Assembly (NCBI RefSeq): GCF_988242995.1
Contig: NZ_OZ547043.1
Strand: one strand, 5' to 3'
DNA length: 64,000 nt
Shown piece by piece: positions 5,514 to 30,107 of the stretch; position 1 is the first letter of the stretch, and every line of letters begins with the position of its first letter. Position numbers and translations under genes: made by a program. The notes under the pieces are model-generated. The model was not told the origin of the DNA, searched no databases, and saw only the letters and a list, made by a program, of their open reading frames with translations.

Positions 5514-5522
5514 GGCGATTCC

Positions 5523-7232: not shown

Positions 7233-7249
7233 GCTCAAACTCTCTTTAA

Positions 7250-8173: not shown

Positions 8174-8175
8174 TC

Positions 8176-10002
8176 TCAGGCTCCTCGTGAAACAATAATC
8201 ACCACCAGTACCGCCAGTTCAACCAGCGCCATCCGGCGGAACAGCAACGCACTCCCCTCGCACTGCCAGCCCGGTACCAGCGACACCGGATTCAGCCATT
8301 TGCGCAGTTTCAGCACCGGCGCAAACGCCTGTTTCACCGGCATGGCAAAACCGTGAGCAGTAATCACCATTGATTTTTCATGGTCGTAGCCGCACACCCA
8401 GGCCGCGCCGCGGGAACGCGACGGCAAACGATCGCCTTTGCAAATCGCCATAATGATGAATGGCAGCAGCGGGCAGGCAATCAGCAGCAACGTGATCATG
8501 GGTTGAGAAACGGTGGTGTTAGCAGGCTCCAGCGGCAGAGGTACAGCAGCAGAGAGCATCGGCAGCAGCCACGGCGCAGCAACACCGCCAATTACGCAGC
8601 AAATCGCCAGTGCCACCACGCTTACGCTCATCAGGAGCGGCGCACTGGTGGCGTTTTCGGCTTCTTTGGTACGCGGCGCGCCGAGGAACGTGACGCCATA
8701 GACTTTCGCCATACACATCACCGCCAGCGCACCGGTAATTGCCAGACCCACTGCGAGCAGCGGCCCCAGCAGACGGGCAACAAACGCGCCACTATTGCTC
8801 AGTTTGAAGAAGGATTGATAGATAACCCATTCCCCGGCAAACCCGTTCAGCGGCGGCAACGCAGCCATTGCCATCAGCCCAACTAACATGGCGATGGAGA
8901 TAACCGGCATTTTCTTGCCAATACCACCGAGTTTTTCGATATCGCGATGACCGGTACGGAACCAGACGCTCCCCGCCCCGAGGAACAGTACGCTTTTGAA
9001 CAGGCTATGGTTAAGCAGATGGTACAGACCACCGACCAGGCCAAGAGCAATCAGCGCCGGTTGTTCGAGCGCGATACCCGTTACGCCAGCGCCCAGCCCC
9101 AGCAGGATAATGCCGATATTCTCCAGGGTGTGGTAAGCCAGCAGGCGCTGGATGTTGTGTTCCATCAACGCATACAGACCACCGACGAACGCGGTGATCA
9201 TGCCGAGCACCAGCAGCGCGATCCCCCACCACAGCGGTGCATTACCGCCCAGCAGCGACAGGGTTAAAATGCCCAGCAGGCCAATTTTCATGACTACCGT
9301 AGAAAACAACGCGGCAGCTGGCGCAGAGGCGTTAGCATGTGCCTGCGGCACCCAGCCGTGCAGCGGAATAATCCCGGCCAGCAGGCCAAAGCCAATCACA
9401 CCGAGCAGCCAGATATCGGAACCGAGCGGCAGCTGTTGCATACGCATATCCAGCAGGCGCAGATCCAGCGTGCCGTAACGCTGCCACAGCAGCCAGCAGG
9501 CAATCGCCAGCAGCAGAGTGCCAAGACGCCCCAGCGCAAACCACAGTTTGCCCTCTTTGCTGTTGCTGGTGAGGAACACCGCACACAGGGCCATGATTTC
9601 GGCCATTACCACGAACATGCCGAGGTTGCTGGCGATGACGGCACAGACGGCGGCAGCCATCAACATATTGATCTGCAAGCCGTTGCATTTCACCTGCGCG
9701 TGGCGATGCCAGTCAATGTTGTAGAGGCTGACAAACAGACCGCACAGGCCGAGCGTAATCAGCCAAATCGCGTTAAGCGGAGAGATTTGCACATCGTAGC
9801 TTACCAGCGACAGCGCACCGCTCACGCCAACCGCACCAGTCAGCACAGTGAAGCCCGCGGCTGCCGTATACAGGCTACCCACCGCGCCGCCAATTCCGGC
9901 TATCCAGCCACTCAGCGCCTTTTGAAAAGAAAAGAGAAATGCCAGAACAGCGGCGGCGGCAAACCACGCCACGCCACTATTGATCAGGGAAATTGCGCTC
10001 AT
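8176..10002 (-). CDS. hycC: Formate hydrogenlyase membrane subunit (NuoL/antiporter-like)
   Basis: 608-aa polytopic membrane ORF; synteny. Confidence 0.92.
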   Translation of the reverse strand: MSAISLINSGVAWFAAAAVLAFLFSFQKALSGWIAGIGGAVGSLYTAAAGFTVLTGAVGVSGALSLVSYDVQISPLNAIWLITLGLCGLFVSLYNIDWHRHAQVKCNGLQINMLMAAAVCAVIASNLGMFVVMAEIMALCAVFLTSNSKEGKLWFALGRLGTLLLAIACWLLWQRYGTLDLRLLDMRMQQLPLGSDIWLLGVIGFGLLAGIIPLHGWVPQAHANASAPAAALFSTVVMKIGLLGILTLSLLGGNAPLWWGIALLVLGMITAFVGGLYALMEHNIQRLLAYHTLENIGIILLGLGAGVTGIALEQPALIALGLVGGLYHLLNHSLFKSVLFLGAGSVWFRTGHRDIEKLGGIGKKMPVISIAMLVGLMAMAALPPLNGFAGEWVIYQSFFKLSNSGAFVARLLGPLLAVGLAITGALAVMCMAKVYGVTFLGAPRTKEAENATSAPLLMSVSVVALAICCVIGGVAAPWLLPMLSAAVPLPLEPANTTVSQPMITLLLIACPLLPFIIMAICKGDRLPSRSRGAAWVCGYDHEKSMVITAHGFAMPVKQAFAPVLKLRKWLNPVSLVPGWQCEGSALLFRRMALVELAVLVVIIVSRGA

Positions 10003-10610
10003 TTAGCCTCTCCACTTTGAGCCTGCTGAAACAAGGTGAGATCGCCAAAGTCCGTGTTAAAAGTCAGCTCACGCTTACGTTTGCTGACGCGGGCGATATC
10101 GGTGTTATCCACCAGATGCAGGGCTTTAGTCGGGCACATCCGCACGCAGGCCGGACCTTGTTCATCAAAGCTACAAAGGTCACATTTGACGGCGATCGCG
10201 CGAATACCTGGCACCCAGTCAAGCAATGTGCTGACACGCGCCGGAGCAGGCGGTGCCGGTGGCGCTTTCGGGGTATTGGCGTTTGCCGGAATATCCAGCG
10301 GACGGCTGCCGGAAAATTCAATTGCGCCAAACGGGCAGGCGATGCCGCACAGTTTGCAGCTTACGCACAGACTTTCATTCAACTGCACGGCCCCATCAAC
10401 GCGGGTGATGGCGTTAACCGGGCAAACCACCGCACAGGGCGCATCTTCACAGTGGTGACAGAGCTGCGGCGCAGATTCTTTTTCATTGAGCATCACTCGC
10501 AGGCGCGGCATTGATTGCAGGCCGTGCTGGCGATGCGTCTCTGAACAGGCGGCCTCACAGGTGTGGCAGCCGATACAGAGCGTGGAGTCAGCAATTACAA
10601 AACGATTCAC
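9999..10610 (-). CDS. hycB: Formate hydrogenlyase iron-sulfur subunit
   Basis: 203-aa ORF with four Cys clusters (CxxCxxCxxxC). Confidence 0.93.
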   Translation of the reverse strand: MNRFVIADSTLCIGCHTCEAACSETHRQHGLQSMPRLRVMLNEKESAPQLCHHCEDAPCAVVCPVNAITRVDGAVQLNESLCVSCKLCGIACPFGAIEFSGSRPLDIPANANTPKAPPAPPAPARVSTLLDWVPGIRAIAVKCDLCSFDEQGPACVRMCPTKALHLVDNTDIARVSKRKRELTFNTDFGDLTLFQQAQSGEAK

Positions 10611-10734
10611 CAGGCATTCCTCAGGTGATTGTCATTTTTGACGAAAACATGCCGATGAAATGTCATTTTCGACACTCATCGACACGCCCATCCCCAAACA
10701 GGCGTAACGCCTGCAAAACGGGCAAAGCCTCAGC

Positions 10735-11196
10735 TCATGCTGCCGGGCTTTGTCCCTTTACCAGTTGGCTTAAATTCACCGGCACATTGTTTTCAATGGC
10801 GGTGTATAAGCTGTCGTAAACGCCAGCGATTTTTTCGAGATAGTGTTCCAGAACCTGTTCGCGATCGCGGATGTTGACCTTGCCATCAATCATGCCGTCA
10901 ATGCTCAGTTGCGCCTGCGCAATCCGCTGTTTGTCTTCACCATCTTTTGTTTCGACGTAATACTCGATGGTGTGGCTGTTAAAGCCATCCGCCAGGGTGA
11001 CGTAAATGCGAAAATGTTCAAAAAGGACGAAACAGAGTTCTTTGTCCGGCGCGCAGCTCATGGCGTGATGCAGGCGCGCTTTCGATAACGTGATCCCCTG
11101 AACCAGCGAATTGCAGTAGATGTGCCACTGGTCCTGTAGGCGACGATGCCGCTGTGCGATGTAATCGGCTTTCTCGCTTATTTCCCAAATAGTCAT
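10735..11196 (-). CDS. hycA: Formate hydrogenlyase regulatory protein (FhlA antagonist)
   Basis: 153-aa ORF MTIWEISEKADYIAQRH... matches HycA. Confidence 0.93.
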   Translation of the reverse strand: MTIWEISEKADYIAQRHRRLQDQWHIYCNSLVQGITLSKARLHHAMSCAPDKELCFVLFEHFRIYVTLADGFNSHTIEYYVETKDGEDKQRIAQAQLSIDGMIDGKVNIRDREQVLEHYLEKIAGVYDSLYTAIENNVPVNLSQLVKGQSPAA

Positions 11197-11233
11197 TGTC
11201 AGGTTACCCGTTTAACAGAGATGCCAGCTTTAA

Positions 11234-11249
11234 GCATTTTCTGTGCCAA
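11234..11249 (-). promoter_or_regulatory. Candidate sigma-54 (-24/-12) promoter of the hyc operon
   Basis: Minus-strand TGGCAC-N5-ATGCT about 40 nt upstream of hycA ATG; hyc is known to be FhlA/sigma-54 dependent. Confidence 0.5.
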
Positions 11250-11361
11250 CTTTTAATTAATTGTTATTAAACAGATTTTTAAGATAAAGATGAATTTCGT
11301 CGCCGTGTCGACGTGTCATTTCGACATCATCGACATTATTCATCGCAGGGATAATCAACAC

Positions 11362-11377
11362 TGGCACAATTATTGCT
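11362..11377 (+). promoter_or_regulatory. Candidate sigma-54 (-24/-12) promoter of the hyp operon
   Basis: TGGCAC-N5-TTGCT about 30 nt upstream of hypA ATG. Confidence 0.55.
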
Positions 11378-11407
11378 TGTAGCTGGCAATAGTTAATGGG
11401 AGGCGAT

Positions 11408-11758
11408 ATGCACGAAATAACCCTCTGCCAACGGGCACTGGAATTGATCGAACAGCAGGCCGCAAAACACGGCGCAAAACGCGTAACTGGGGTCTGGCTC
11501 AAAATTGGCGCATTTTCTTGTGTCGAAACCAGCTCTCTTGCCTTTTGTTTTGATCTGGTTTGCCGCGGCAGCGTGGCGGAAGGTTGTAAACTGCACCTCG
11601 AAGAACAAGAGGCCGAATGCTGGTGTGAAACATGCCAACAGTATGTGACGCTACTGACCCAGCGCGTCCGCCGCTGTCCACAGTGTCATGGTGACATGCT
11701 ACAGATTGTGGCAGACGACGGTTTACAGATTCGGCGGATAGAAATAGACCAGGAGTGA
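11408..11758 (+). CDS. hypA: Hydrogenase nickel incorporation protein
   Basis: ORF 11396..11758; start taken at MHEITLCQRALE (116 aa); CxxC...CxxC zinc motif. Confidence 0.93.
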   Translation: MHEITLCQRALELIEQQAAKHGAKRVTGVWLKIGAFSCVETSSLAFCFDLVCRGSVAEGCKLHLEEQEAECWCETCQQYVTLLTQRVRRCPQCHGDMLQIVADDGLQIRRIEIDQE

Positions 11759-11761
11759 GCG

Positions 11762-12634
11762 ATGTGTACAACATGCGGTTGCGGTGAAGGCAACCTGTAT
11801 ATCGAGGGTGATGAACATAACCCTCATTCCGCGTTTCGTAGCGCGCCATTTGCCCCGGCGGCACGCCCGAAGATGAAAATCACCGGCATTAAAGCGCCTG
11901 AATTTACCCCCAGCCAGACTGATGAAGGCGACCTGCATTACGGTCATGGCGTAGCGGGCACACACGCGCCGGGCATGAGCCAGCGTCGAATGCTGGAAGT
12001 TGAAATTGACGTGCTGGACAAAAACAACCGTCTGGCTGAACGCAACCGCGCGCGCTTTGCTGCCCGCAAGCAACTGGTGCTCAACCTGGTTTCCAGCCCT
12101 GGTTCCGGTAAAACCACCCTGCTGACGGAAACCTTAATGCGCCTGAAAGACAGCGTTCCGTGCGCAGTTATTGAAGGCGACCAGCAAACCGTGAACGATG
12201 CCGCGCGCATTCGTGCTACCGGCACACCAGCGATTCAGGTGAACACCGGTAAAGGCTGCCATCTTGACGCACAGATGATTGCCGACGCCGCGCCGCGCCT
12301 GCCACTGGACGATAACGGTATTCTGTTTATCGAAAACGTCGGCAACCTCGTATGCCCGGCCAGCTTCGATCTCGGTGAAAAACACAAAGTGGCGGTGCTT
12401 TCCGTTACCGAAGGTGAAGACAAACCGCTGAAATATCCGCATATGTTTGCCGCAGCTTCGCTGATGCTGCTCAACAAAGTTGACTTGCTGCCGTATCTCA
12501 ACTTTGACGTTGAGAAGTGCATCGCCTGCGCCCGCGAAGTCAATCCAGAAATTGAAATCATCCTTATTTCCGCCACCAGCGGCGAAGGGATGGACCAGTG
12601 GCTGAACTGGCTGGAGACACAGCGATGTGCATAG
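11762..12634 (+). CDS. hypB: Hydrogenase maturation GTPase / nickel-binding protein
   Basis: 290-aa ORF; N-terminal CTTCGCGEG motif, P-loop GSGKTT. Confidence 0.93.
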
Positions 12635-12897
12635 GCGTTCCCGGCCAGATCCGCACCATTGACGGCAACCAGGCGAAAGTCGACGTCTGCGGCATTCAGC
12701 GCGACGTCGATTTAACGTTAGTCGGCAGCTGCGATGAAAACGGTCAGCCACGCGTGGGCCAGTGGGTACTGGTTCACGTTGGCTTTGCCATGAGCGTAAT
12801 TAATGAAGCCGAAGCGCGCGACACTCTCGACGCCTTACAAAACATGTTTGACGTTGAGCCGGATGTCGGTGCGCTGTTGTATGGCGAGGAAAAATAA
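12625..12897 (+). CDS. hypC: Hydrogenase maturation chaperone
   Basis: Start at [11 protein letters not shown] (90 aa), the conserved HypC N-terminus; 10-nt overlap with hypB. Confidence 0.92.
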
Positions 12898-14018
12898 TGC
12901 GTTTTGTTGATGAATATCGCTCGCCGGAACAGGTGATGCAGTTAATTGAGCATCTGCGCGAACGTGCTTCACATCTCTCTTACACCGCCGAACGCCCTCT
13001 GCGGATTATGGAAGTGTGCGGTGGTCATACCCACGCCATTTTTAAATTCGGCCTCGACCAGTTGCTGCCGGAAAACGTTGAGTTTATCCACGGTCCCGGT
13101 TGCCCGGTGTGTGTACTGCCGATGGGTAGAATCGACACCTGCGTGGAGATTGCCAGCCATCCGGAAGTCATCTTCTGTACCTTTGGCGACGCCATGCGCG
13201 TGCCGGGGAAACAGGGATCGCTGTTGCAGGCAAAAGCACGCGGTGCCGATGTGCGCATCGTTTACTCGCCGATGGATGCGTTGAAACTGGCGCAGGAGAA
13301 TCCAACCCGCAAAGTGGTGTTCTTCGGCTTAGGTTTTGAAACCACCATGCCGACGACGGCCATCACTCTGCAACAGGCGAAAGCGCGTGATGTGCAGAAT
13401 TTTTACTTCTTCTGCCAGCATATTACGCTTATCCCGACGCTGCGCAGTTTGCTGGAACAGCCGGATAACGGTATCGACGCGTTTCTTGCGCCCGGTCACG
13501 TTAGTATGGTTATCGGCACTGATGCCTATAATTTTATCGCCAGCGATTTTCATCGTCCGCTGGTGGTCGCTGGTTTCGAACCCCTTGATCTACTGCAAGG
13601 CGTGGTGATGCTGGTGGAGCAGAAAATAGCGGCCCACAGCAAGGTAGAGAATCAGTATCGTCGGGTGGTGCCGGATGCCGGTAACCTGCTGGCGCAACAG
13701 GCGATTGCCGATGTGTTCTGTGTCAACGGCGACAGCGAATGGCGCGGCTTAGGCGTGATTGAATCTTCTGGTGTACACCTGACGCCGGATTATCAACGAT
13801 TCGATGCCGAAGCGCATTTCCGCCCGGCACCGCAGCAGGTCTGCGATGACCCGCGTGCGCGTTGTGGCGAAGTATTAACGGGCAAATGTAAGCCGCATCA
13901 ATGCCCGCTATTTGGTAACACCTGTAATCCTCAAACCGCGTTTGGTGCGCTGATGGTTTCCTCCGAAGGAGCGTGCGCCGCGTGGTATCAGTATCGTCAG
14001 CAGGAGAGTGAAGCGTGA
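12897..14018 (+). CDS. hypD: Hydrogenase maturation factor
   Basis: 373-aa ORF; CGGHTH and CPVC motifs. Confidence 0.93.
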   Translation: MRFVDEYRSPEQVMQLIEHLRERASHLSYTAERPLRIMEVCGGHTHAIFKFGLDQLLPENVEFIHGPGCPVCVLPMGRIDTCVEIASHPEVIFCTFGDAMRVPGKQGSLLQAKARGADVRIVYSPMDALKLAQENPTRKVVFFGLGFETTMPTTAITLQQAKARDVQNFYFFCQHITLIPTLRSLLEQPDNGIDAFLAPGHVSMVIGTDAYNFIASDFHRPLVVAGFEPLDLLQGVVMLVEQKIAAHSKVENQYRRVVPDAGNLLAQQAIADVFCVNGDSEWRGLGVIESSGVHLTPDYQRFDAEAHFRPAPQQVCDDPRARCGEVLTGKCKPHQCPLFGNTCNPQTAFGALMVSSEGACAAWYQYRQQESEA

Positions 14019-15025
14019 ATAATATCCAACTCGCCCACGGCAGCGGCGGCCAGGCGATGCAGCAATTAATCAACAGCCTGTTTATGGAAGCCTTTGCCAA
14101 CCCGTGGCTGGCAGAGCAGGAAGATCAGGCCCGTCTTGATCTGGCGCAGCTGGTAGCGGAAGGCGACCGTCTGGCGTTCTCCACCGACAGTTACGTCATT
14201 GACCCGCTGTTCTTTCCTGGCGGTAATATCGGCAAGCTGGCGATTTGCGGCACAGCCAATGACGTTGCGGTCAGTGGCGCTATTCCGCGCTATCTCTCCT
14301 GTGGCTTTATCCTCGAAGAAGGATTGCCGATGGAGACACTGAAAGCCGTCGTGACCAGCATGGCAGAAACCGCCCGCGCGGCAGGCATTGCCATCGTCAC
14401 TGGCGATACTAAAGTGGTGCAGCGCGGCGCGGCAGATAAACTGTTTATCAACACCGCTGGCATGGGCGCAATTCCGGCGAATATTCACTGGGGCGCACAG
14501 ACGCTAACCGCAGGCGATGTATTGCTGGTTAGCGGTACACTCGGCGACCACGGGGCGACTATCCTTAACCTGCGTGAGCAGCTGGGGCTGGATGGCGAAC
14601 TGGTCAGCGACTGTGCGGTACTAACGCCGCTTATTCAGACGCTGCGTGACATTCCCGGCGTGAAAGCGCTGCGTGATGCCACCCGTGGTGGTGTGAACGC
14701 GGTAGTTCATGAGTTCGCGGCAGCCTGCGGTTGCGGTATTGAAATTTCAGAAGCGGCACTGCCGGTTAAACCTGCTGTGCGCGGCGTTTGCGAACTGCTG
14801 GGACTGGACGCCCTTAACTTTGCCAACGAAGGCAAACTGGTGATCGCCGTTGAACGCAACGCGGCAGAGCAAGTGCTGGCAGCGTTACATTCCCATCCAC
14901 TGGGAAAAGACGCGGCGCTGATTGGTGAAGTGGTGGAACGTAAAGGTGTTCGTCTTGCCGGTCTGTATGGCGTGAAACGAACCCTCGATCTACCGCACGC
15001 CGAACCGCTTCCGCGTATATGCTAA
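14015..15025 (+). CDS. hypE: Hydrogenase maturation carbamoyl dehydratase
   Basis: 336-aa ORF ending in the conserved PRIC C-terminus. Confidence 0.93.
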   Translation: MNNIQLAHGSGGQAMQQLINSLFMEAFANPWLAEQEDQARLDLAQLVAEGDRLAFSTDSYVIDPLFFPGGNIGKLAICGTANDVAVSGAIPRYLSCGFILEEGLPMETLKAVVTSMAETARAAGIAIVTGDTKVVQRGAADKLFINTAGMGAIPANIHWGAQTLTAGDVLLVSGTLGDHGATILNLREQLGLDGELVSDCAVLTPLIQTLRDIPGVKALRDATRGGVNAVVHEFAAACGCGIEISEAALPVKPAVRGVCELLGLDALNFANEGKLVIAVERNAAEQVLAALHSHPLGKDAALIGEVVERKGVRLAGLYGVKRTLDLPHAEPLPRIC

Positions 15026-15098
15026 TAAAATTCTAAATCTCCTATAGTTAGTCAATGACCTTTTGCACCGCTTTGCGGTGCTTTCCTGGAAGAACAAA

Positions 15099-17177
15099 AT
15101 GTCATATACACCGATGAGTGATCTCGGACAACAAGGGTTGTTCGACATCACTCGGACACTATTGCAGCAGCCCGATCTGGCCTCGCTGTGTGAGGCTCTT
15201 TCGCAACTGGTAAAGCGTTCTGCGCTCGCCGACAACGCGGCTATTGTGTTGTGGCAAGCGCAGACTCAACGTGCGTCTTATTACGCATCGCGTGAAAAAG
15301 ACACCCCCATTAAATATGAAGACGAAACTGTTCTGGCACACGGTCCGGTACGCAGCATTTTGTCGCGCCCTGATACGCTGCATTGCAGTTACGAAGAATT
15401 TTGTGAAACCTGGCCGCAGCTGGCCGCAGGTGGGCTATACCCCAAATTTGGTCACTATTGCCTGATGCCACTGGCGGCGGAAGGGCATATTTTTGGTGGC
15501 TGTGAATTTATTCGTTATGACGATCGCCCCTGGAGCGAAAAAGAGTTCAATCGTCTGCAAACATTTACGCAGATCGTTTCTGTCGTCACCGAACAAATCC
15601 AGAGCCGCGTCGTCAATAATGTCGACTATGAGTTGTTATGCCGGGAGCGCGATAACTTCCGCATCCTGGTTGCCATTACCAACGCGGTGCTTTCCCGCCT
15701 GGATATGGACGAACTGGTCAGCGAAGTCGCCAAAGAAATCCATTACTACTTCGACATTGACGATATCAGCATCGTCTTACGCAGCCACCGTAAAAACAAA
15801 CTCAACATCTACTCCACTCACTATCTTGATAAACAGCATCCCGCCCACGAACAGAGCGAAGTCGATGAAGCCGGAACCCTCACCGAACGCGTGTTCAAAA
15901 GCAAAGAGATGCTGCTGATTAATCTCCACGAGCGGGACGATTTAGCCCCCTATGAACGCATGTTGTTCGACACCTGGGGCAACCAGATTCAAACCTTGTG
16001 CCTGTTACCGCTGATGTCTGGCGACACCATGCTGGGCGTGCTGAAACTGGCGCAATGCGAAGAGAAAGTGTTTACCACTACCAATCTGAATTTACTGCGC
16101 CAGATTGCCGAACGTGTGGCAATCGCTGTCGATAACGCCCTCGCCTATCAGGAAATCCATCGTCTGAAAGAACGGCTGGTTGATGAAAACCTCGCCCTGA
16201 CCGAGCAGCTCAACAATGTTGATAGTGAATTTGGCGAGATTATTGGCCGCAGCGAAGCCATGTACAGCGTGCTTAAACAAGTTGAAATGGTGGCGCAAAG
16301 TGACAGTACCGTGCTGATCCTCGGTGAAACTGGCACGGGTAAAGAGCTGATTGCCCGTGCTATCCATAATCTCAGTGGGCGTAATAATCGCCGCATGGTC
16401 AAAATGAACTGCGCGGCGATGCCTGCCGGATTGCTGGAGAGCGATCTGTTTGGTCATGAGCGTGGGGCTTTTACCGGTGCCAGCGCCCAGCGTATCGGTC
16501 GTTTTGAACTGGCGGATAAAAGCTCCCTGTTCCTCGACGAAGTGGGCGATATGCCACTGGAGTTACAGCCGAAGTTGCTGCGTGTATTACAGGAACAGGA
16601 GTTTGAACGTCTCGGCAGCAACAAAATCATTCAGACGGACGTGCGTCTAATCGCCGCAACTAACCGCGATCTGAAAAAAATGGTCGCCGACCGTGAGTTC
16701 CGTAGCGATCTCTATTACCGCCTGAACGTATTCCCGATTCACCTGCCGCCACTACGCGAGCGTCCGGAAGATATTCCGCTGCTGGCGAAAGCCTTTACCT
16801 TCAAAATTGCCCGTCGTCTGGGGCGCAATATCGACAGCATTCCTGCCGAGACGCTGCGCACCTTGAGCAACATGGAGTGGCCGGGTAACGTACGCGAACT
16901 GGAAAACGTCATTGAGCGCGCGGTATTGCTAACACGCGGCAACGTGCTGCAGCTGTCATTGCCTGATATTGCTTTACCGGAGCCTGAAACGCCGCCTGCC
17001 GCAACGGTTGTCGCCCAGGAGGGCGAAGATGAATATCAGTTGATTGTTCGCGTGCTGAAAGAAACCAACGGCGTGGTTGCCGGGCCTAAAGGCGCTGCGC
17101 AACGTCTGGGGCTGAAACGCACGACTCTGCTGTCACGGATGAAGCGACTGGGAATTGATAAATCGGCATTGATTTAA
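15099..17177 (+). CDS. fhlA: Formate hydrogenlyase transcriptional activator (sigma-54-dependent enhancer-binding protein)
   Basis: ORF 15063..17177; start taken at MSYTPMSDLG (692 aa); AAA+ motifs GETGTGKE and GAFTGA. Confidence 0.93.
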   Translation: MSYTPMSDLGQQGLFDITRTLLQQPDLASLCEALSQLVKRSALADNAAIVLWQAQTQRASYYASREKDTPIKYEDETVLAHGPVRSILSRPDTLHCSYEEFCETWPQLAAGGLYPKFGHYCLMPLAAEGHIFGGCEFIRYDDRPWSEKEFNRLQTFTQIVSVVTEQIQSRVVNNVDYELLCRERDNFRILVAITNAVLSRLDMDELVSEVAKEIHYYFDIDDISIVLRSHRKNKLNIYSTHYLDKQHPAHEQSEVDEAGTLTERVFKSKEMLLINLHERDDLAPYERMLFDTWGNQIQTLCLLPLMSGDTMLGVLKLAQCEEKVFTTTNLNLLRQIAERVAIAVDNALAYQEIHRLKERLVDENLALTEQLNNVDSEFGEIIGRSEAMYSVLKQVEMVAQSDSTVLILGETGTGKELIARAIHNLSGRNNRRMVKMNCAAMPAGLLESDLFGHERGAFTGASAQRIGRFELADKSSLFLDEVGDMPLELQPKLLRVLQEQEFERLGSNKIIQTDVRLIAATNRDLKKMVADREFRSDLYYRLNVFPIHLPPLRERPEDIPLLAKAFTFKIARRLGRNIDSIPAETLRTLSNMEWPGNVRELENVIERAVLLTRGNVLQLSLPDIALPEPETPPAATVVAQEGEDEYQLIVRVLKETNGVVAGPKGAAQRLGLKRTTLLSRMKRLGIDKSALI

Positions 17178-17221
17178 CAGATGTGGTTATACTCGATCAA
17201 CATTCAATGAAAGGAGGCAGT

Positions 17222-17650
17222 ATGGCAGTTTCAGCAAGAAATCAATTAACCGGAACAGTTAGCGCAGTAGCAATGGGCGCTGTGAATGATGAAGTAGAAC
17301 TGACGCTGGCAGGTGGTGCAAAGCTGGTGGCAATTGTGACTCACAGCAGCCAGCAAGCGCTGGGTCTGGCGAAAGGGAAAGAAGCGATTGCCCTGATTAA
17401 AGCCCCGTGGGTAACGCTGGCAACGGAAGACTGTGGACTGAAATTCTCTGCTCGCAACCAGTTTGCTGGCAGCGTGTCGACAATCACCGAAGGAGCAGTG
17501 AACGCCACTGTCCATATCAAAACGGATGCGGGTTTTGAAATTGTGGCAGTGGTAACAAATGAAAGTCAGGATGAAATGAAACTCACCACTGGCTCGCGCG
17601 TTATTGCATTGATCAAAGCATCAGCCATCCTGATTGCCACCAAAGCGTAA
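17222..17650 (+). CDS. Molybdate/molybdenum-pterin-binding protein, tandem TOBE (Mop) domains
   Basis: ORF 17183..17650; start at ATG 17222 behind AAGGAGG; two repeated ~70-aa TOBE-like halves (ARNQLTGTV... / ARNQFAGSV...). Confidence 0.7.
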   Translation: MAVSARNQLTGTVSAVAMGAVNDEVELTLAGGAKLVAIVTHSSQQALGLAKGKEAIALIKAPWVTLATEDCGLKFSARNQFAGSVSTITEGAVNATVHIKTDAGFEIVAVVTNESQDEMKLTTGSRVIALIKASAILIATKA

Positions 17651-17661
17651 GCGCCTTATTT

Positions 17662-17698
17662 GCCGGAGAGTATGGCTCTCCGGCAGATTTATTTCTTT
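17662..17698. terminator. Bidirectional rho-independent terminator between mop-like gene and ygbA
   Basis: Hairpin GCCGGAGAG-TATGG-CTCTCCGGC followed by T-rich run; overlaps ygbA stop codon. Confidence 0.6.
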
Positions 17699-18033
17699 GG
17701 ACGATATTTTTCTGGCAACTCCGGCACCGGACGCTTGTCATCGATGAGATGACGCACGGTTAAGATCGGATGACGCCACAGCATTCGCGGCCCAGCCCAA
17801 CGCATAATCTGTTTCATCTCTTCACGCTTTGCAGGCTGGTAACAGTGCACCGGACACTGCTTACAGGCTGGTTTCTCTTCGCCGAACACACATTTATCCA
17901 GCCGCTTTTGCGCGTAAGTAAACAACGCCTCATAATGCTCCGGCTCCGCTGACGCCTGCGGGCATTTCGCTTGATAAAGATCGATCATTTTTTTAATCGT
18001 CAGTTTTTCACGAGAGATACGCTTGCCGGACAT
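17689..18033 (-). CDS. ygbA: Nitrosative-stress inducible protein YgbA
   Basis: 114-aa ORF MSGKRISREKLTIKKMIDLYQAKCP... with CxxC pairs, matching YgbA. Confidence 0.88.
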   Translation of the reverse strand: MSGKRISREKLTIKKMIDLYQAKCPQASAEPEHYEALFTYAQKRLDKCVFGEEKPACKQCPVHCYQPAKREEMKQIMRWAGPRMLWRHPILTVRHLIDDKRPVPELPEKYRPKK

Positions 18034-18050
18034 GCTGCCTCCATCTCATT

Positions 18051-18079
18051 AAGATGCATTTATATTACAACTTAATCTT
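18051..18079. promoter_or_regulatory. Candidate NsrR operator upstream of ygbA
   Basis: AAGATGCATTT half-site (perfect) plus a degenerate partner half, 18-46 nt upstream of ygbA ATG. Confidence 0.4.
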
Positions 18080-18319
18080 AAAGGGCACTATGACTCTAAA
18101 GAAGAAGGGTTAGCCAACCGATACAATTTTGCGTACTTGCTTCATAAGCATCACGCAAAAGCTGCAAAACAGCATCTTTCCCGGAATCACCATCAAGAAC
18201 TCGCCGTTCGCTTCTTCCCCTGAAATGATTAACTCCGGTATCATGTGCGCCTTATGTGATTACAACGAAAATAAAAACCATCACACCCCATTTAATATCA
18301 GGGAACCGGACATAACCCC

Positions 18320-20881
18320 ATGAGTGCAATAGAAAATTTCGATGCCCATACGCCCATGATGCAGCAATATCTCAAGCTGAAAGCCCAGCATCCCGAGATC
18401 CTGCTGTTTTACCGGATGGGTGATTTTTATGAACTGTTTTATGACGACGCAAAACGCGCGTCGCAACTGCTGGATATTTCACTGACCAAACGCGGTGCTT
18501 CGGCGGGAGAGCCGATCCCGATGGCGGGGATCCCCTACCATGCGGTGGAAAACTACCTCGCCAAACTGGTGAATCAGGGCGAGTCCGTTGCCATCTGCGA
18601 ACAAATTGGCGATCCGGCGACCAGCAAAGGTCCAGTTGAGCGCAAAGTTGTGCGTATCGTTACGCCAGGCACCATCAGCGATGAAGCCCTGTTACAAGAG
18701 CGCCAGGACAATCTGCTGGCGGCTATCTGGCAGGACAGTAAAGGTTTCGGCTACGCGACGCTGGATATCAGTTCCGGTCGTTTTCGCCTGAGCGAACCGG
18801 CTGACCGGGAAACGATGGCGGCAGAACTGCAACGCACTAATCCGGCGGAACTGCTATATGCAGAAGATTTTGCTGAGATGTCGCTGATTGAAGGTCGTCG
18901 CGGTCTGCGCCGTCGTCCGCTGTGGGAGTTTGAAATCGACACCGCGCGCCAGCAGTTGAATCTGCAATTTGGCACCCGCGATCTGGTCGGTTTTGGCGTC
19001 GAGAACGCGCCGCGCGGACTTTGTGCTGCCGGTTGTCTGTTGCAGTATGCGAAAGATACCCAACGTACGACTCTGCCGCATATTCGTTCTATCACTATGG
19101 AACGTGAGCAGGACAGCATCATTATGGATGCCGCGACGCGTCGTAACCTGGAAATTACCCAGAACCTGGCGGGCGGTGCGGAAAACACGCTGGCTTCAGT
19201 GCTCGACTGCACTGTAACGCCGATGGGTAGTCGTATGCTGAAACGCTGGCTGCATATGCCAGTGCGCGATACCCGCGTGTTGCTTGAGCGCCAGCAAACT
19301 ATTGGCGCATTGCAGGATTTCACCGCCGAGCTACAGCCGGTGCTGCGTCAGGTCGGCGACCTGGAACGTATTCTGGCGCGTCTGGCTTTACGAACTGCTC
19401 GCCCACGCGATCTGGCCCGTATGCGTCACGCTTTCCAGCAACTGCCGGAGCTGCGTGCGCAGTTAGAAAATGTCGATAGCGCTCCGGTACAGGCGCTACG
19501 TGAAAAAATGGGCGAGTTTGCCGAGCTGCGCGATCTGCTGGAGCGGGCAATCATCGACACACCGCCAGTGCTGGTACGCGACGGTGGTGTTATCGCATCG
19601 GGCTATAACGAAGAGCTGGATGAGTGGCGCGCGCTGGCTGACGGCGCGACCGATTATCTGGAGCGTCTGGAAGTCCGCGAGCGTGAACGTACTGGCCTGG
19701 ACACGCTGAAAGTCGGCTTTAACGCGGTTCATGGTTATTACATTCAGATCAGCCGTGGACAAAGCCATCTGGCACCCATCAACTACATGCGTCGCCAGAC
19801 GCTGAAAAACGCCGAGCGCTACATCATTCCAGAGCTAAAAGAGTACGAAGATAAAGTTCTCACCTCAAAAGGCAAAGCACTGGCACTGGAAAAACAACTT
19901 TATGAAGAGCTGTTCGACCTGCTGTTGCCGCATCTGGAAGCGTTGCAACAGAGCGCGAGCGCGCTGGCGGAACTTGATGTGCTGGTTAACCTGGCGGAAC
20001 GGGCCTATACCCTGAACTACACCTGCCCGACCTTCATTGATAAACCGGGTATTCGCATCACCGAAGGTCGCCATCCGGTGGTTGAACAGGTACTGAACGA
20101 GCCATTTATCGCCAACCCGCTGAACCTGTCGCCGCAGCGTCGCATGTTGATCATTACCGGTCCGAATATGGGCGGTAAAAGTACCTATATGCGCCAGACC
20201 GCACTGATTGCGCTGATGGCCTACATCGGCAGCTATGTACCGGCACAAAAAGTCGAGATTGGACCTATCGACCGTATCTTCACCCGCGTAGGGGCAGCGG
20301 ATGATCTGGCATCCGGGCGTTCAACCTTTATGGTGGAGATGACCGAAACCGCCAATATTCTGCATAACGCCACCGAGTACAGTCTGGTGCTGATGGATGA
20401 GATTGGGCGCGGGACGTCCACTTACGATGGTCTGTCGCTGGCGTGGGCGTGCGCGGAAAATCTGGCGAATAAGATTAAAGCGTTGACGTTGTTTGCCACC
20501 CACTATTTCGAGCTGACCCAGTTACCGGAGAAAATGGAAGGCGTCGCCAACGTGCATCTCGATGCACTGGAGCACGGCGACACCATTGCCTTTATGCACA
20601 GCGTGCAGGATGGCGCGGCGAGCAAAAGCTACGGCCTGGCGGTTGCAGCTCTGGCGGGCGTGCCAAAAGAGGTTATTAAGCGCGCACGGCAAAAACTGCG
20701 TGAGCTGGAAAGCATTTCGCCGAACGCCGCCGCGACACAGGTCGATGGCACGCAGATGTCGCTGCTTTCAGTGCCGGAAGAAACCTCGCCAGCGGTCGAA
20801 GCACTGGAAAATCTCGACCCGGATTCACTGACTCCGCGTCAGGCGCTGGAATGGATTTATCGCTTGAAGAGTCTGGTGTAA
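18320..20881 (+). CDS. mutS: DNA mismatch repair protein MutS
   Basis: 853-aa ORF; [25 protein letters not shown]...; Walker [10 protein letters not shown]. Confidence 0.97.
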
Positions 20882-20886
20882 TAACA

Positions 20887-20915
20887 ATTCCCGATAGTCT
20901 TTTGCTATCGGGAAT
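20887..20915 (+). terminator. Possible mutS terminator hairpin
   Basis: ATTCCCGATAG-N7-CTATCGGGAAT inverted repeat directly after the mutS stop; weak U-tract. Confidence 0.35.
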
Positions 20916-20986
20916 ATTAACGACAACTGACGAATCAAATAAAAACACCCTGTATAATAGGAAATCTTATTTTACAGGGTAAAACC

Positions 20987-21643
20987 ATGCCATCTACACG
21001 CTATCAAAAAATTAATGCCCATCACTATCGTTATATATGGGCCGTTGGTGATATTCATGGTGACTATCAATTATTACAATCCCGCTTACATCAACTCTCT
21101 TTTTGCCCTGAAACCGACTTACTTATTTCTGTCGGCGATAATATTGATCGTGGGCCGGAGAGTCTTAACGTGCTGCGCCTGCTAAACCAGCCCTGGTTTA
21201 CATCGGTTAAAGGCAACCATGAAGCGATGGCGCTTGATGCATTCGAAACTGGCGATGGAAATATGTGGCTTGCCAGCGGCGGCGACTGGTTCTTTGAATT
21301 AAATGAGACGGAACAACAAGAAGCAATAAATCTGTTGCTGAAATTTCATCGCCTTCCACATATTATTGAAATCACTAACGACATAATAAAATATGTCATC
21401 GCACATGCAGATTATCCAGGGAATGAATATCTCTTTGGCAAAGAAATAGCGGAGAGAGAACTACTCTGGCCTGTTGATCGTGTGCAGAAATCGCTTAATG
21501 GCGAGTTACAACAAATAAACGGCGCTGATTATTTTATATTTGGACATATGATGTTTGATAACATTCAGACGTTCGCAAACCAGATTTATATTGATACCGG
21601 ATCGCCGAAAAGCGGGCGGCTGTCATTTTATAAAATAAAGTAG
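20987..21643 (+). CDS. pphB: Serine/threonine protein phosphatase 2
   Basis: 218-aa ORF with GDIHG and GDNIDRG metallophosphatase motifs. Confidence 0.92.
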   Translation: MPSTRYQKINAHHYRYIWAVGDIHGDYQLLQSRLHQLSFCPETDLLISVGDNIDRGPESLNVLRLLNQPWFTSVKGNHEAMALDAFETGDGNMWLASGGDWFFELNETEQQEAINLLLKFHRLPHIIEITNDIIKYVIAHADYPGNEYLFGKEIAERELLWPVDRVQKSLNGELQQINGADYFIFGHMMFDNIQTFANQIYIDTGSPKSGRLSFYKIK

Positions 21644-21693
21644 TCTCATGCTTCTTCTGTGAAGCATGAGTAACCCGGTGTTATTGCAGGCCA

Positions 21694-22461
21694 TTATTCA
21701 TTTTTCGCTACCAGCAAAAAGAGATCCTGCTTCGCCAGCGCGCGACTGGCACTCTCCGGCAAACCGTCGTCTGTAATAATCTGATCAAACTCGCTTAATG
21801 GTAACGCCAGCCATGTCGCCACCTGACCATATTTCGTCGCATCACAGACCAAAACTCGCTGGCGGCTGGCACTGGCAATCGCCCGTTTCACCGTGACTTT
21901 ATCTTCCGCTGGCGTAGAAATCCCCCGCACACTCCATGACGATGCAGAAATAAAAGCCTGATCAATCATCAGGCTGCGCAGCATGGTCGCAGCGGCTTCC
22001 CCGACACAGGAACGGTTTTCCCGACACACTGCACCGCCAGTGTGAATAATTGTGCAATTACTGTTGTCGAGCAAGTAGTCCGCAATAACGAAATCGTTTG
22101 TGACCACAGTCAGTGACTCCATGTGAATCAGATGCTGTGCTATCGCTAGCGTGGTCGTTCCCGCATCCAGATAGATACAACTTCCCGGCTGAACAAGACT
22201 TGCCGCCAGCTTGCCAATAGCCGCTTTTTGCGTCATTGCCAGCGCAGTTTTTACCTGATGAGAAGGTTCATGCGCCACGCGTCCCGGAGACTGGACGCCT
22301 CCGGACACCAGCACAACAGCTCCCTGCTGCTCCAGTTTTTGTAAATCCCGACGAATGGTCATATGTGACACATTCATTCTGTCCGTTAGTTCAGCAATAC
22401 TGACAATGCCTTTTTCAGCTACCATCTCAAGGATGATTTGGCGACGCTCTACGGGTATCAA
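21694..22461 (-). CDS. ygbI: DeoR-family transcriptional regulator
   Basis: ORF 21694..22491; N-terminal HTH; likely TTG start at 22461 giving 255 aa. Confidence 0.85.
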   Translation of the reverse strand: MIPVERRQIILEMVAEKGIVSIAELTDRMNVSHMTIRRDLQKLEQQGAVVLVSGGVQSPGRVAHEPSHQVKTALAMTQKAAIGKLAASLVQPGSCIYLDAGTTTLAIAQHLIHMESLTVVTNDFVIADYLLDNSNCTIIHTGGAVCRENRSCVGEAAATMLRSLMIDQAFISASSWSVRGISTPAEDKVTVKRAIASASRQRVLVCDATKYGQVATWLALPLSEFDQIITDDGLPESASRALAKQDLFLLVAKNE

Positions 22462-22656
22462 CTTTTGCTCCTTCCTTTGTCCTGCTGACATTCTACGCTA
22501 TTTGCCTGCGAAACGTGCGCGGCGCAACTAACACTTAGTTCACATAAAATAACACACAATGTTAATTTATGTGAATCAGCTCACCATATCGTTATCTTCC
22601 AGCGCTTATATTCACAATATCAAACAAAATATCACTTAAATTAACAAGGAGAGCAG

Positions 22657-23565
22657 ATGAAAACGGGATCTGAGTTTCATGTCGGTATCGTTGGCTTAGG
22701 GTCAATGGGAATGGGAGCAGCACTGTCATGTGTCCGCGCAGGTCTTTCTACCTGGGGCGCAGACCTGAACAGCAATGCCTGCGCTACGTTGAAAGAGGCA
22801 GGTGCTTGCGGGGTTTCTGATAACGCCGCGACGTTTGCCGAAAAACTGGACGCTCTGCTGGTGCTGGTGGTCAATGCGGCCCAGGTTAAACAGGTGCTGT
22901 TTGGTGAAACAGGCGTTGCACAACATCTGAAACCCGGTACGGCAGTAATGGTTTCTTCCACTATCGCTAGTGCTGATGCGCAAGAAATTGCTACCGCTCT
23001 GGCTGGATTCGATCTGGAAATGCTGGATGCGCCAGTTTCTGGTGGTGCAGTAAAAGCCGCTAACGGTGAAATGACTGTCATGGCCTCCGGTAGCAATATT
23101 GCCTTTGAACGACTGGCACCCGTGCTGGAAGCCGTTGCCGGAAAAGTTTATCGCATAGGTGCAGAACCGGGACTAGGTTCGACCGTAAAAATTATTCACC
23201 AGTTGTTAGCGGGCGTACATATTGCTGCCGGAGCCGAAGCGATGGCACTTGCAGCCCGTGCGGGGATCCCGCTGGATGTGATGTATGACGTCGTGACCAA
23301 TGCCGCCGGAAATTCCTGGATGTTCGAAAACCGGATGCGTCATGTGGTGGATGGCGATTACACCCCGCATTCAGCCGTCGATATTTTTGTTAAGGATCTT
23401 GGTCTGGTTGCCGATACAGCCAAAGCCCTGCACTTCCCGCTGCCATTGGCCTCAACAGCATTGAATATGTTCACCAGCGCCAGTAACGCGGGTTACGGGA
23501 AAGAAGACGATAGCGCAGTTATCAAGATTTTCTCTGGCATCACTCTACCGGGAGCGAAATCATGA
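22657..23565 (+). CDS. ygbJ: NAD-dependent L-threonate dehydrogenase (3-hydroxyisobutyrate dehydrogenase family)
   Basis: 302-aa ORF; N-terminal Rossmann GxGxxG (IVGLGSMG). Confidence 0.88.
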   Translation: MKTGSEFHVGIVGLGSMGMGAALSCVRAGLSTWGADLNSNACATLKEAGACGVSDNAATFAEKLDALLVLVVNAAQVKQVLFGETGVAQHLKPGTAVMVSSTIASADAQEIATALAGFDLEMLDAPVSGGAVKAANGEMTVMASGSNIAFERLAPVLEAVAGKVYRIGAEPGLGSTVKIIHQLLAGVHIAAGAEAMALAARAGIPLDVMYDVVTNAAGNSWMFENRMRHVVDGDYTPHSAVDIFVKDLGLVADTAKALHFPLPLASTALNMFTSASNAGYGKEDDSAVIKIFSGITLPGAKS

Positions 23566-24824
23566 TCAAGATTGGCGTTATCGCCGATGATTTTACCGGC
23601 GCGACGGATATCGCCAGTTTTCTGGTGGAAAACGGTCTACCAACGGTACAAATTAACGGTGTTCCAACAGGTAAAATGCCGGAAGCAATCGACGCACTGG
23701 TGATCAGCCTGAAAACGCGTTCCTGTCCGGTTGTTGAAGCCACACAGCAATCGCTGGCGGCTCTGAGCTGGTTGCAACAGCAAGGTTGCAAACAGATCTA
23801 TTTCAAATACTGCTCTACTTTCGACAGTACGGCGAAAGGTAATATCGGCCCGGTTACCGATGCATTAATGGATGCTCTCGACACGCCGTTTACGGTCTTC
23901 TCTCCGGCCCTGCCGGTCAACGGACGTACGGTTTATCAGGGGTATTTGTTCGTAATGAATCAACTGCTGGCCGAATCTGGGATGCGCCATCACCCGGTAA
24001 ATCCCATGACCGACAGCTATCTTCCCCGTCTGGTTGAAGCGCAATCCACAGGGCGCTGCGGCGTCGTTTCGGCACATGTTTTCGAACAAGGTGTGGATGC
24101 CGTTCGTCAAGAGCTGGCTCGCTTACAGCAAGAGGGCTACCGCTACGCGGTGCTTGATGCGCTGACCGAACACCATCTGGAAATTCAGGGAGAAGCCTTG
24201 CGCGATGCCCCACTGGTAACGGGCGGTTCTGGTCTGGCGATTGGCCTTGCCCGGCAGTGGGCGCAAGAAAACGGTAACCAGGCTCGCAAAGCAGGGCATC
24301 CGCTCGCTGGGCGCGGCGTAGTGCTCTCCGGTTCATGCTCTCAAATGACCAACCGCCAGGTAGCACATTACCGTCAAATTGCACCAGCCCGTGAAGTTGA
24401 TGTGGCACGCTGCCTCTCAATTGAAACTCTGGCCGCTTATGCACACGAACTGGCAGAGTGGGTTCTGGGCCAGGAAAGTGTACTTGCTCCACTGGTTTTT
24501 GCCACCGCCAGCACTGACGCATTGGCAGCAATTCAACAGCAATACGGTGCACAAAAAGCCAGTCAGGCAGTAGAAACACTGTTTTCTCAACTAGCGGCGC
24601 GGTTAGCAGCGGAAGGCGTGACACGCTTTATTGTCGCAGGCGGTGAGACCTCCGGCGTAGTCACACAGAGCCTGGGAATAAAAGGGTTTCATATTGGCCC
24701 AACCATTTCTCCCGGCGTGCCGTGGGTAAACGCACTGGATAAACCTGTCTCACTCGCCCTTAAATCTGGCAACTTCGGTGATGAAGCCTTTTTTTCACGA
24801 GCCCAAAGAGAGTTTTTATCATGA
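23562..24824 (+). CDS. ygbK: 3-oxo-tetronate kinase (four-carbon acid sugar kinase family)
   Basis: 420-aa ORF overlapping ygbJ stop by 4 bp; synteny. Confidence 0.85.
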   Translation: MIKIGVIADDFTGATDIASFLVENGLPTVQINGVPTGKMPEAIDALVISLKTRSCPVVEATQQSLAALSWLQQQGCKQIYFKYCSTFDSTAKGNIGPVTDALMDALDTPFTVFSPALPVNGRTVYQGYLFVMNQLLAESGMRHHPVNPMTDSYLPRLVEAQSTGRCGVVSAHVFEQGVDAVRQELARLQQEGYRYAVLDALTEHHLEIQGEALRDAPLVTGGSGLAIGLARQWAQENGNQARKAGHPLAGRGVVLSGSCSQMTNRQVAHYRQIAPAREVDVARCLSIETLAAYAHELAEWVLGQESVLAPLVFATASTDALAAIQQQYGAQKASQAVETLFSQLAARLAAEGVTRFIVAGGETSGVVTQSLGIKGFHIGPTISPGVPWVNALDKPVSLALKSGNFGDEAFFSRAQREFLS

Positions 24825-25459
24825 GCGATTTCGCAAAAGTAGAGCCGTCTTTGCGAGAGGAGATGACGCGGATTGCCAGTTCATTCTTTCAGCGCGGCTA
24901 TGCAACCGGTTCGGCTGGCAATCTGTCGCTGCTTTTACCTGACGGGAATTTACTGGCGACACCGACAGGTTCATGCCTGGGCAATCTCGATCCGCAGCGG
25001 CTTTCCAAAGTCGCCGCGGATGGCGAATGGTTAAGTGGTGACAAACCCTCGAAAGAGGTGCTCTTTCATCTGGCGCTGTATCGCAACAATCCGCGCTGTA
25101 AAGCGGTGGTGCATTTGCACAGCACATGGTCGACGGCGCTTTCCTGCCTGCAAGGGCTGGACAGCAGCAACGTTATTCGTCCGTTCACACCATACGTGGT
25201 GATGCGGATGGGAAATATCCCGCTGGTGCCTTATTACCGACCGGGCGATAAACGCATCGCACAGGATCTGGCGGAACTGGCAGCAGACAATCAGGCTTTT
25301 TTACTGGCAAATCATGGCCCAGTGGTTTGCGGTGAAAGCCTGCAAGAAGCCGCCAACAATATGGAAGAGCTGGAGGAAACGGCAAAGCTGATTTTTATTC
25401 TCGGTGATCGCCCGATCCGTTATCTGACCGCAGGTGAAATTGCGGAATTAAGGAGTTAA
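24821..25459 (+). CDS. ygbL: 3-oxo-tetronate 4-phosphate decarboxylase (class II aldolase/adducin family)
   Basis: 212-aa ORF; synteny. Confidence 0.85.
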
Positions 25460-27693: not shown

Positions 27694-27700
27694 CCTTAAT

Positions 27701-27733
27701 AAAAAGGTCCGATGGGCATCGGACCTTTTATTT
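27701..27733. terminator. Bidirectional rho-independent terminator between ygbN and the convergent decarboxylase operon
   Basis: AAAAAGGTCCGATG-GG-CATCGGACCTTTTATTT: 10-bp perfect stem flanked by A-run and T-run. Confidence 0.7.
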
Positions 27734-27968: not shown

Positions 27969-27978
27969 CTTGTTCTCC

Positions 27979-29999: not shown

Positions 30000-30016
30000 T
30001 GTTTATTCTCTTAATT

Positions 30017-30030
30017 GTTCGTATACGAAC
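30017..30030. promoter_or_regulatory. Perfect 14-bp palindrome GTTCGTATACGAAC in divergent promoter region; candidate MarR-family operator
   Basis: Read directly; lies between ecdB start (29999) and the MarR-like gene start. Confidence 0.4.
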
Positions 30031-30107
30031 GTTATTATTAAAATACGCCTCTGTTTTCATCGCGGCAAGCACTGAAAAGTAACAACATCTTCTTCGTCAC
30101 TGAAAAA

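Follow-up and report, generated by a model that had tools for sequence, protein, structure and literature searches.

In the stretch of DNA analysed here (64,000 nucleotides of contig NZ_OZ547043.1, RefSeq assembly GCF_988242995.1, hereafter the window), the interval between fhlA and ygbA is occupied by a mop/modG-like gene (hereafter mop), an intact open reading frame of 142 amino acids with an AAGGAGG ribosome-binding site 4 nt 5' of its ATG, as the original prediction had announced when it pointed to a frame of this length with a strong ribosome-binding site (Table 1). A longer reading of 155 amino acids, from a GTG at 17183, is also available; the ATG start is the one used by RefSeq and by all orthologues. 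The protein, in which Trp63 and Cys71 are present, is RefSeq WP_000301062.1, and the identical accession is found in strains GF60 and E2348/69. The immediate upstream neighbour of mop is fhlA, the gene that in K-12 closes the hyp-fhlA cluster. In the NCBI pipeline fhlA is given the symbol "flhA" and the product name "formate hydrogenlyase transcriptional activator FlhA", which collides with the flagellar flhA. Further downstream, a 44-aa open reading frame on the minus strand between ygbA and mutS (18110-18244) corresponds to the RefSeq hypothetical protein WP_000611938.1 in GF60, and has a 59-aa version in EC590 (K-12-like).

Table 1. Features of the fhlA–ygbA interval, with positions in the window.
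Feature	Position	Strand	Evidence or remark
fhlA (formate hydrogenlyase transcriptional activator)	15099..17177	+	100% protein match to RefSeq FhlA of strain GF60
fhlA-mop spacer, 44 nt	17178..17221	+	Holds the two conserved elements of the next two lines
TATACT, –10-like	17188..17193	+	Conserved
AAGGAGG, ribosome-binding site	17211..17217	+	Conserved
mop/modG-like gene (CFT073 c3292; WP_000301062.1)	17222..17650	+	ATG to stop codon; Pfam, NCBIfam, 1H9J homology, AlphaFold2, dN/dS
Mop domain 1, residues 1-68	17222..17425	+	Ligand residues (Table 2) mapped from Tub (9BEB) via alignments
Mop domain 2, residues 74-142	17441..17647	+	Ligand residues (Table 2) mapped likewise from Tub
Intrinsic terminator hairpin, 14-bp stem and U-rich tail	17658..17688	+	Terminator scan, fold, junction alignment
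Segment absent from K-12/O157 (about 5 nt, TGCAA, there instead)	17179..17659	none	Junction comparison
ygbA (nitrous oxide-stimulated promoter family protein), convergent	17689..18033	–	114 aa, ends ...RPKK

The gene is already known, being catalogued as c3292 of CFT073, and its polymorphism has been published (PMC4209514, PMC7232297); the primer TAACCGGAACAGTTAGCGC used by Ewers 2014 (PMC4209514) is identical to window positions 17247-17265. That study is the only relevant paper in the searchable literature in which c3292 appears by name, and no experimental work on enterobacterial mop/c3292 was found there. In this sense the original prediction correctly spotted a gene that is ordinary and already catalogued. 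What is added here is the direction of the polymorphism, which is a loss and not a gain, an exact family assignment in which neither domain has lost any ligand site, the conservation of the place in the operon and a set of label corrections.

With regard to transcription, the fhlA-mop spacer has no significant RNA structure (fold z = +0.2) and a terminator scan found none within it, while mop is followed by a strong terminator (fold –28.5 kcal/mol, z = –4.6) that reaches up to the stop codon of ygbA, which runs convergently. Given a short spacer lacking a terminator, a conserved place after hyp-fhlA and a terminator after the gene, co-transcription with hyp-fhlA is the simplest model, and mop is probably transcribed together with these genes. 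No consensus sigma-70 promoter was found in 16700-18350. A GG(C/T)TATA(C/A)T motif is kept about 28 nt 5' of the ATG in Escherichia, Citrobacter, Kluyvera and Pluralibacter, and is preceded by a hairpin in the spacers of Lelliottia and Enterobacter soli. In the window the –10-like TATACT is accompanied by no recognisable –35 element; mop may have a promoter of its own in addition. No sequence resembling a ModE operator (TAYAT-N7-TAYAT) lies near mop, the window holding seven such sites vs 5.5 expected by chance, with the nearest at 20222, and an Rfam scan of 16800-18400 at E <= 1 returned no family, thus no Moco riboswitch or known sRNA.

Domain architecture, fold and oxyanion sites

The two tandem TOBE/Mop domains that had been proposed from a visible internal duplication (ARNQLTGTVS/ARNQFAGSVS) were recovered by a Pfam search, in which TOBE (PF03459) matches the protein twice (E 8.8e-35, 119 bits vs a cut-off of 22.3), as well as by NCBIfam TIGR00638 "Mop", which also matches twice (E 4.1e-42, 142 bits vs a cut-off of 55), and 30 of 70 residues are identical between the two halves at an offset of 72. 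The same Pfam search gave no helix-turn-helix, and the protein has no other DNA-binding, ATPase or interaction domain. Homology to the ModG protein of Azotobacter vinelandii (1H9J) extends over the whole chain, residues 1-140 of the mop protein aligning with 4-143 (E 5e-33, about 48-49% identity, 49% in the MAFFT alignment); E. coli ModE is matched far less well, through its C-terminal di-Mop half (E about 1e-15). An AlphaFold2 model of the single chain, built from a 32-sequence alignment (pLDDT 96.5, pTM 0.88), has as its top PDB matches in Foldseek the ModG structures 1H9J/1H9K/1H9M (TM 0.94-0.95, rmsd 1.3 A). For the best of these, 1H9J, TM is 0.95/0.93 and rmsd 1.3 A along the entire chain, at 48% identity; the second-best structural match is the di-Mop domain of ModE (TM about 0.89).

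Two tandem Mop/TOBE domains in about 140 amino acids, full-length homology to ModG, a di-Mop fold (two intertwined OB-like beta barrels) and ligand residues in both domains are features of a ModG-type molbindin, and all four were found; the single-domain architecture of Mop and Tub (one domain, about 70 aa) is not that of the mop protein, which carries two domains in one chain, although it would be expected to work as they do. Because the match to the ModE equivalog model is confined to the C-terminal half and neither a helix-turn-helix nor an ATPase domain accompanies it, the mop protein is, as judged from its sequence and its predicted fold, a stand-alone cytoplasmic molbindin of the ModG type with two fused Mop/TOBE domains. 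ABC ATPases of the ModC/WtpC type were considered too and rejected, only the C-terminal 60-70 profile positions being matched, with 26-49 bits vs cut-offs of 285-440.

In Tub, the type-1 oxyanion sites are formed by the backbone of Ala20-Val21-Asn22, and the type-2 sites by Ser4, Arg6, Lys60 and Ala61 of one chain together with Ser40 of the adjoining chain, and both have been likened to those of ModG, Mop and ModE (PMC11980592). These positions were transferred from Tub (PMC11980592) to the mop protein by aligning each half to Tub, MopII and ModG, and a complete set was found in either domain (Table 2). In an alignment of 32 sequences that includes ModG, conservation in every mapped ligand column is complete or reaches at least 90%, and the equivalent positions that are lost from Mop domain 2 of E. 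coli ModE are kept in both domains of the mop protein. Between the two domains, Cys71 (codon 17432-17434), in the linker TEDCGLKF, is nearly invariant in the enterobacterial orthologues and absent from A. vinelandii ModG (SSGYRL).

Table 2. Ligand residues of the mop protein as mapped from Tub.
Element	Domain 1	Domain 2
Ser/Arg element	S4, R6	S76, R78
A-V-N loop	A20-V21-N22	A92-V93-N94
Thr (Ser40 in Tub)	T40	T112
Lys-Ala element	K60-A61	K132-A133

Existing labels are generic or misleading. RefSeq uses "TOBE domain-containing protein" or "molybdopterin-binding protein", some JGI records have "molybdate transport system regulatory protein", and in the SPI-1 paper of Lerminiaux et al., 2020 (PMC7232297) the same gene is mislabelled "modE"; however, the family binds molybdate, not molybdopterin, and the protein is not ModE. 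For annotation, the value of the present assignment is that mop would be named a ModG-type molybdate/tungstate binder, neither a "molybdopterin-binding protein" nor "modE".

Distribution, synteny and deletion in K-12/O157

The gene had been predicted to be strain-variable, and this holds: among the 5,426 complete genomes of E. coli, a full-length copy, always single and chromosomal, is carried by 1,889 (~35%), and a partial copy occurs in only three of the 5,426, i.e., the gene is full length in 1,889 of the 1,892 genomes that have any of it. According to named strains and two papers, on which the distribution among E. coli lineages is based, mop is retained in the B2 strains CFT073, ATCC 25922, APEC O18 and E2348/69, and it is also found in IAI39, E. 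albertii and E. fergusonii. The long fhlA-mutS amplicon has been said to be exclusive to the o454-nlpD "pattern III" (B2), and E2348/69 has been given as 1,208 bp (PMC4209514, Table 1). Both entries are contradicted by the present data, since the window has a layout of the pattern IV type (ygbN, vdcC/kpdC, vdcB/kpdB, rpoS and nlpD, in 26329-32867), yet mop is present, and since E2348/69 carries an identical Mop protein (28025-28453 in the extracted locus). Two published statements on mop need adjusting, namely its restriction to "pattern III" and its insertion as an "island".

Several observations were made on these two genomes in passing. In the window, rpoS (30674-31665, minus strand) has a 1-nt deletion in codon 66 (lesion at about 31468-31472, GAGATTGGTTATTCA -> GAGATTGTTATTCA), after which the product would read ...LGEIVIHHC* with the remainder of RpoS out of frame; as read from the sequence, it is a null allele. 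The rpoS of E2348/69 is likewise annotated as frameshifted, but it is wild-type at the site of the window's lesion, and the two lesions are therefore independent. E2348/69 (3173-13970 in the extracted locus) has several IS elements and a HigB toxin-antitoxin pair between norW and hycI, and its hyc-hyp-fhlA-mop cluster is intact; its hypF is a pseudogene with an internal stop, which would be expected to make this reference EPEC strain hydrogenase-deficient. Identity between the window and E2348/69 is 97.0% over 36.8 kb, window 15000-25000 finds no match better than 98.7% among the 5,426 complete genomes of E. coli, and 651 bp around mop are 100% identical to strain GF60. In keeping with its closeness to mutS, this 10-kb stretch has a mosaic appearance, and its source lineage seems to be sparsely sampled.

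In a synteny survey of 49 loci, with one genome per species, mop directly follows fhlA in 36 and directly follows hypE in three more (Phytobacter, Kosakonia sp. S29), where fhlA does not adjoin. These 39 hyp/fhlA-linked loci all belong to Enterobacteriaceae and include E. albertii, a cryptic Escherichia clade, Citrobacter, Klebsiella, Raoultella, Kluyvera, Pluralibacter, Enterobacter, Yokenella, Lelliottia and Kosakonia. The spacer between fhlA and mop measures 36-56 nt in most genera, with GGAGG and the GG(C/T)TATA(C/A)T motif kept. Elsewhere the orthologue stands in other surroundings, i.e., on the dapA-gcvR-bcp/perM side in Serratia, beside an aldehyde dehydrogenase and an alginate lyase in Cedecea, and beside a HAD hydrolase and an amino-acid permease in Edwardsiella, and no functional neighbour recurs among these three genera. 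Given these unrelated contexts, as well as that of some Salmonella, the link between mop and hyp/fhlA is specific to the family and not universal. The Salmonella enterica orthologue (6001-6429 and 4025-4453 in two extracted loci) is 89% identical and lies away from fhlA, flanked on one side by a YdgH/BhsA-TetR-DUF417-msrQ/msrP-like block and on the other by CaiF/GrlA-like and fimbrial usher genes, with an IS21 IstB fragment adjoining in one contig; this location suggests relocation or re-acquisition. The fhlA-mutS interval of Salmonella holds SPI-1 (PMC7232297).

When the window is compared with 44 orthologues, mop gives dN/dS values of 0.03-0.09; taken species pair by species pair, neither its dS nor its dN/dS stands apart from the values for hypD, hypE, fhlA and mutS. 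The GC content of mop is 0.50 vs 0.53 in the window, and its GC3 is 0.47 vs 0.55-0.62 in the neighbours. The matching dS, the low dN/dS and the near-native GC argue for vertical inheritance together with the hyp-fhlA cluster under purifying selection. From these comparisons of sequence and gene order, mop is ancestral in Enterobacteriaceae, with its place at the 3' end of hyp-fhlA.

The original prediction held that K-12 lacks a gene at this position, which is the case: in MG1655 (NC_000913.3) fhlA (b2731) runs to 2856416 and ygbA (b2732) begins at 2856453, leaving 36 bp and no gene between them, and K-12 and O157:H7 have one identical fhlA-ygbA junction in common. Within the 36-bp spacer there is a hairpin, ATTGCCGGACAG...CTGTCCGGCATACT, which is nearly the same as the hairpin directly after mop in Citrobacter amalonaticus and, from the junction read by eye and by local alignment, homologous to the terminator in the window. 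As the mop-side terminator is retained in the K-12 spacer, the K-12 state is a clean deletion of mop; read from these junctions, the K-12/O157 state is derived, by gene loss and not by gain. What had been called an "extra" gene thus turns out, from the comparative genomics of the fhlA-ygbA interval, to be ancestral across Enterobacteriaceae, with K-12/O157 carrying a derived deletion that keeps the old terminator. The net difference in size of the region, about 466 bp when the 9-nt longer ygbA of K-12 is counted, agrees with the fhlA-mutS amplicons of 1,673 bp in CFT073 vs 1,208 bp in MG1655 (Ewers 2014, PMC4209514). At the end points of the deletion, neither clear direct repeats nor microhomology could be discerned, and the boundaries hold no mobile-element genes. 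The C-terminus of YgbA is tied to the indel, being ...RPKK* (114 aa; window 17689-17700) in genomes with mop and in most other genera, and ...RPKKPHE* (117 aa) in K-12/O157; by this comparison ...KK* is the common state and the ...KKPHE* of K-12 the derived one. In this classic polymorphic region, fhlA-mutS-rpoS, K-12 is thus the odd one out among Enterobacteriaceae for mop.

Proposed function and relation to known molbindins

We consider it highly probable that mop encodes a ModG-type molbindin, ancestral after hypABCDE-fhlA and deleted in the K-12/O157 lineage, which most likely serves as a molybdenum/tungsten buffer for formate dehydrogenase-H (FDH-H). The formate hydrogenlyase complex (FHL) contains the Mo-bisMGD selenoenzyme FDH-H, and tungstate acts via the molybdenum-cofactor pathway. 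Since full expression of FHL and fdhF moreover requires molybdate and ModE (Pinske 2011, PMC3149613), it would make sense for a molybdate buffer to be produced alongside the FHL maturation proteins. A link to the molybdo-selenoenzyme pathway (FDH-H/FHL) had been raised in the original prediction, and it appears plausible, the more so with the conserved operon position. In the mechanism that we propose, mop would be transcribed by read-through from fhlA, possibly also from TATACT, up to the strong terminator shared with the convergent ygbA. By analogy with known molbindins, three di-Mop chains would form a trimer that is a pseudo-hexamer of Mop domains, and could bind up to eight molybdate or tungstate oxyanions, two of them bound on the threefold axis through the backbone of the G-A-V-N loops and six in the interfaces between subunits through the motifs S-A-R-N, V-T-x-x-S and I-K-A. 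While the FHL regulon is on, the protein would buffer or store molybdate for the Mo-bisMGD of FDH-H and would soak up tungstate. The buffering role is likely as judged from gene position; on the other hand, K-12 makes active FHL without mop, which is therefore dispensable under laboratory conditions.

The main rival to storage is a regulatory role, in which the protein, molybdate-loaded or empty, would act on a partner. This could be FhlA, the TOBE domain of ModC, or ModE, whose repression of modABC would be relieved as the two proteins compete for molybdate. FHL expression or molybdenum uptake would thus be tied to the availability of molybdenum. The conserved place beside the regulator gene fhlA would fit such a role, as would the molybdate dependence of FHL expression (PMC3149613), the term "molybdate homeostasis regulator" applied to ModG (PMC11980592) and the nearly invariant linker Cys71, absent from ModG. 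However, the protein has no DNA-binding or interaction domain, mop follows hypE with no adjoining fhlA in Phytobacter and Kosakonia sp. S29 and stands alone in Serratia, Edwardsiella and Cedecea, and the molybdate-dependent control of FHL is kept in K-12, which lacks mop; in addition, all eight storage-type ligand sites appear to be retained, which favours bulk binding. On balance, we regard a mainly regulatory function as unlikely.

Far less probable still, and largely refuted, is the reading of mop as a strain-specific accessory gene gained horizontally, the "extra gene" or "island" of earlier accounts. It could appeal to the fhlA/-/mutS interval as a known hot spot for island acquisition (PMC7232297), to a presence in only 35% of E. 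coli genomes, to the somewhat lower GC3 and to the Salmonella copy elsewhere beside an IS21 fragment. Against this, the same position is occupied in E. albertii, the cryptic Escherichia clade, Citrobacter, Klebsiella, Raoultella, Kluyvera, Enterobacter, Kosakonia and others, the dS of mop lies in the range of the flanking core genes in each species pair, mobile-element genes or repeats were not found at the boundaries, and the K-12 spacer keeps the mop-side terminator. A decaying, non-functional remnant heading for loss, to which we give an equally slight chance, would agree with the loss of mop from about 65% of E. coli genomes, with its absence from the fhlA locus in Salmonella and with a truncated 125-aa form recorded in one E. 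albertii protein (P0119); it is rejected, given that nearly every E. coli genome having any mop has it at full length, that dN/dS is as low as for hypD, hypE and fhlA, that the ligand residues are invariant or at least 90% conserved and that the strong ribosome-binding site is conserved. Finally, a ModE-type transcription factor (implied by the labels in PMC7232297 and some JGI records), suggested by the 88 bits of the NF007957 equivalog model and by the rank of the ModE di-Mop domain among the structural matches, is refuted by domain content and has practically no chance of being right, as the profile is matched only in its C-terminal di-Mop half (positions 124-261 of 263), at 88 bits vs an equivalog cut-off of 369, in a protein of 142 aa (ModE, about 262 aa) that has no N-terminal helix-turn-helix and, unlike ModE, keeps the ligand residues of its second Mop domain.

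A molbindin that buffers molybdate and tungstate is thus the reading that we prefer. A more specific proposal, which we put forward as a speculation with a small chance of being correct, is that the Enterobacteriaceae molbindin is a dedicated part of the FHL regulon, made with hyp-fhlA, which gates molybdate and excludes tungstate for the FDH-H cofactor, or feeds molybdenum status to ModE or FhlA, and that its loss in K-12 rewired molybdenum control. If so, B2 ExPEC, E. albertii, Citrobacter and Klebsiella would differ from K-12 in hydrogen and formate metabolism under molybdenum limitation and in tungstate sensitivity. The practical value of the finding is modest: about a third of sequenced E. 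coli, including most B2 of the ExPEC type, have a predicted cytoplasmic molybdenum/tungsten buffer that is missing in K-12, and its presence could alter FDH-H/FHL activity when molybdate is scarce, as well as responses to tungstate.

Among known systems, CFT073 c3292 (WP_000301062.1) is the same gene and has nothing structurally different. With the single-domain molbindins (C. pasteurianum MopII, 1GUG; S. ovata Mop, 1FR3; E. limosum Tub, 9BEB) each half of the mop protein can be aligned along some 66 residues (E about 1e-9), and the ligand positions are the same; those proteins, of about 70 aa and one domain, are homo-hexamers with eight oxyanion sites, whereas in mop the domains are fused and three chains would build the same assembly. 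The C-terminal di-Mop domain of E. coli ModE (1H9R/1H9S, 1B9M, 1O7L) has the same fold (TM about 0.89, 34-36% identity), and its domain 1 has the SARNQ, T-x-x-S and KAPWV ligand motifs in common with domain 1 of mop; on the other hand, ModE possesses an N-terminal DNA-binding half that is missing in the mop protein, and its domain 2 is without ligand residues (ADNQ, PVNEA, FNAD), while mop retains both sets. The closest relative with a solved structure is ModG of A. vinelandii (1H9J/1H9K/1H9M), a di-Mop cytoplasmic molybdate-binding protein of the same length class (145 aa vs 142 aa in mop) and the same two-domain architecture, which by alignment shares with mop all type-1 and type-2 ligand positions in both domains and differs in the linker, where the Cys71 conserved in mop is missing. 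As far as the reference titles quoted in PMC11980592 indicate, modG lies in the mod locus of A. vinelandii and is regulated by ModE; mop, by contrast, stands after hyp-fhlA and is followed by ygbA, with no adjoining mod genes and no ModE-operator-like site nearby. Moreover, the mop host, unlike A. vinelandii, does not fix nitrogen, and any client of the mop protein would be FDH-H or another Mo-bisMGD enzyme, not nitrogenase.
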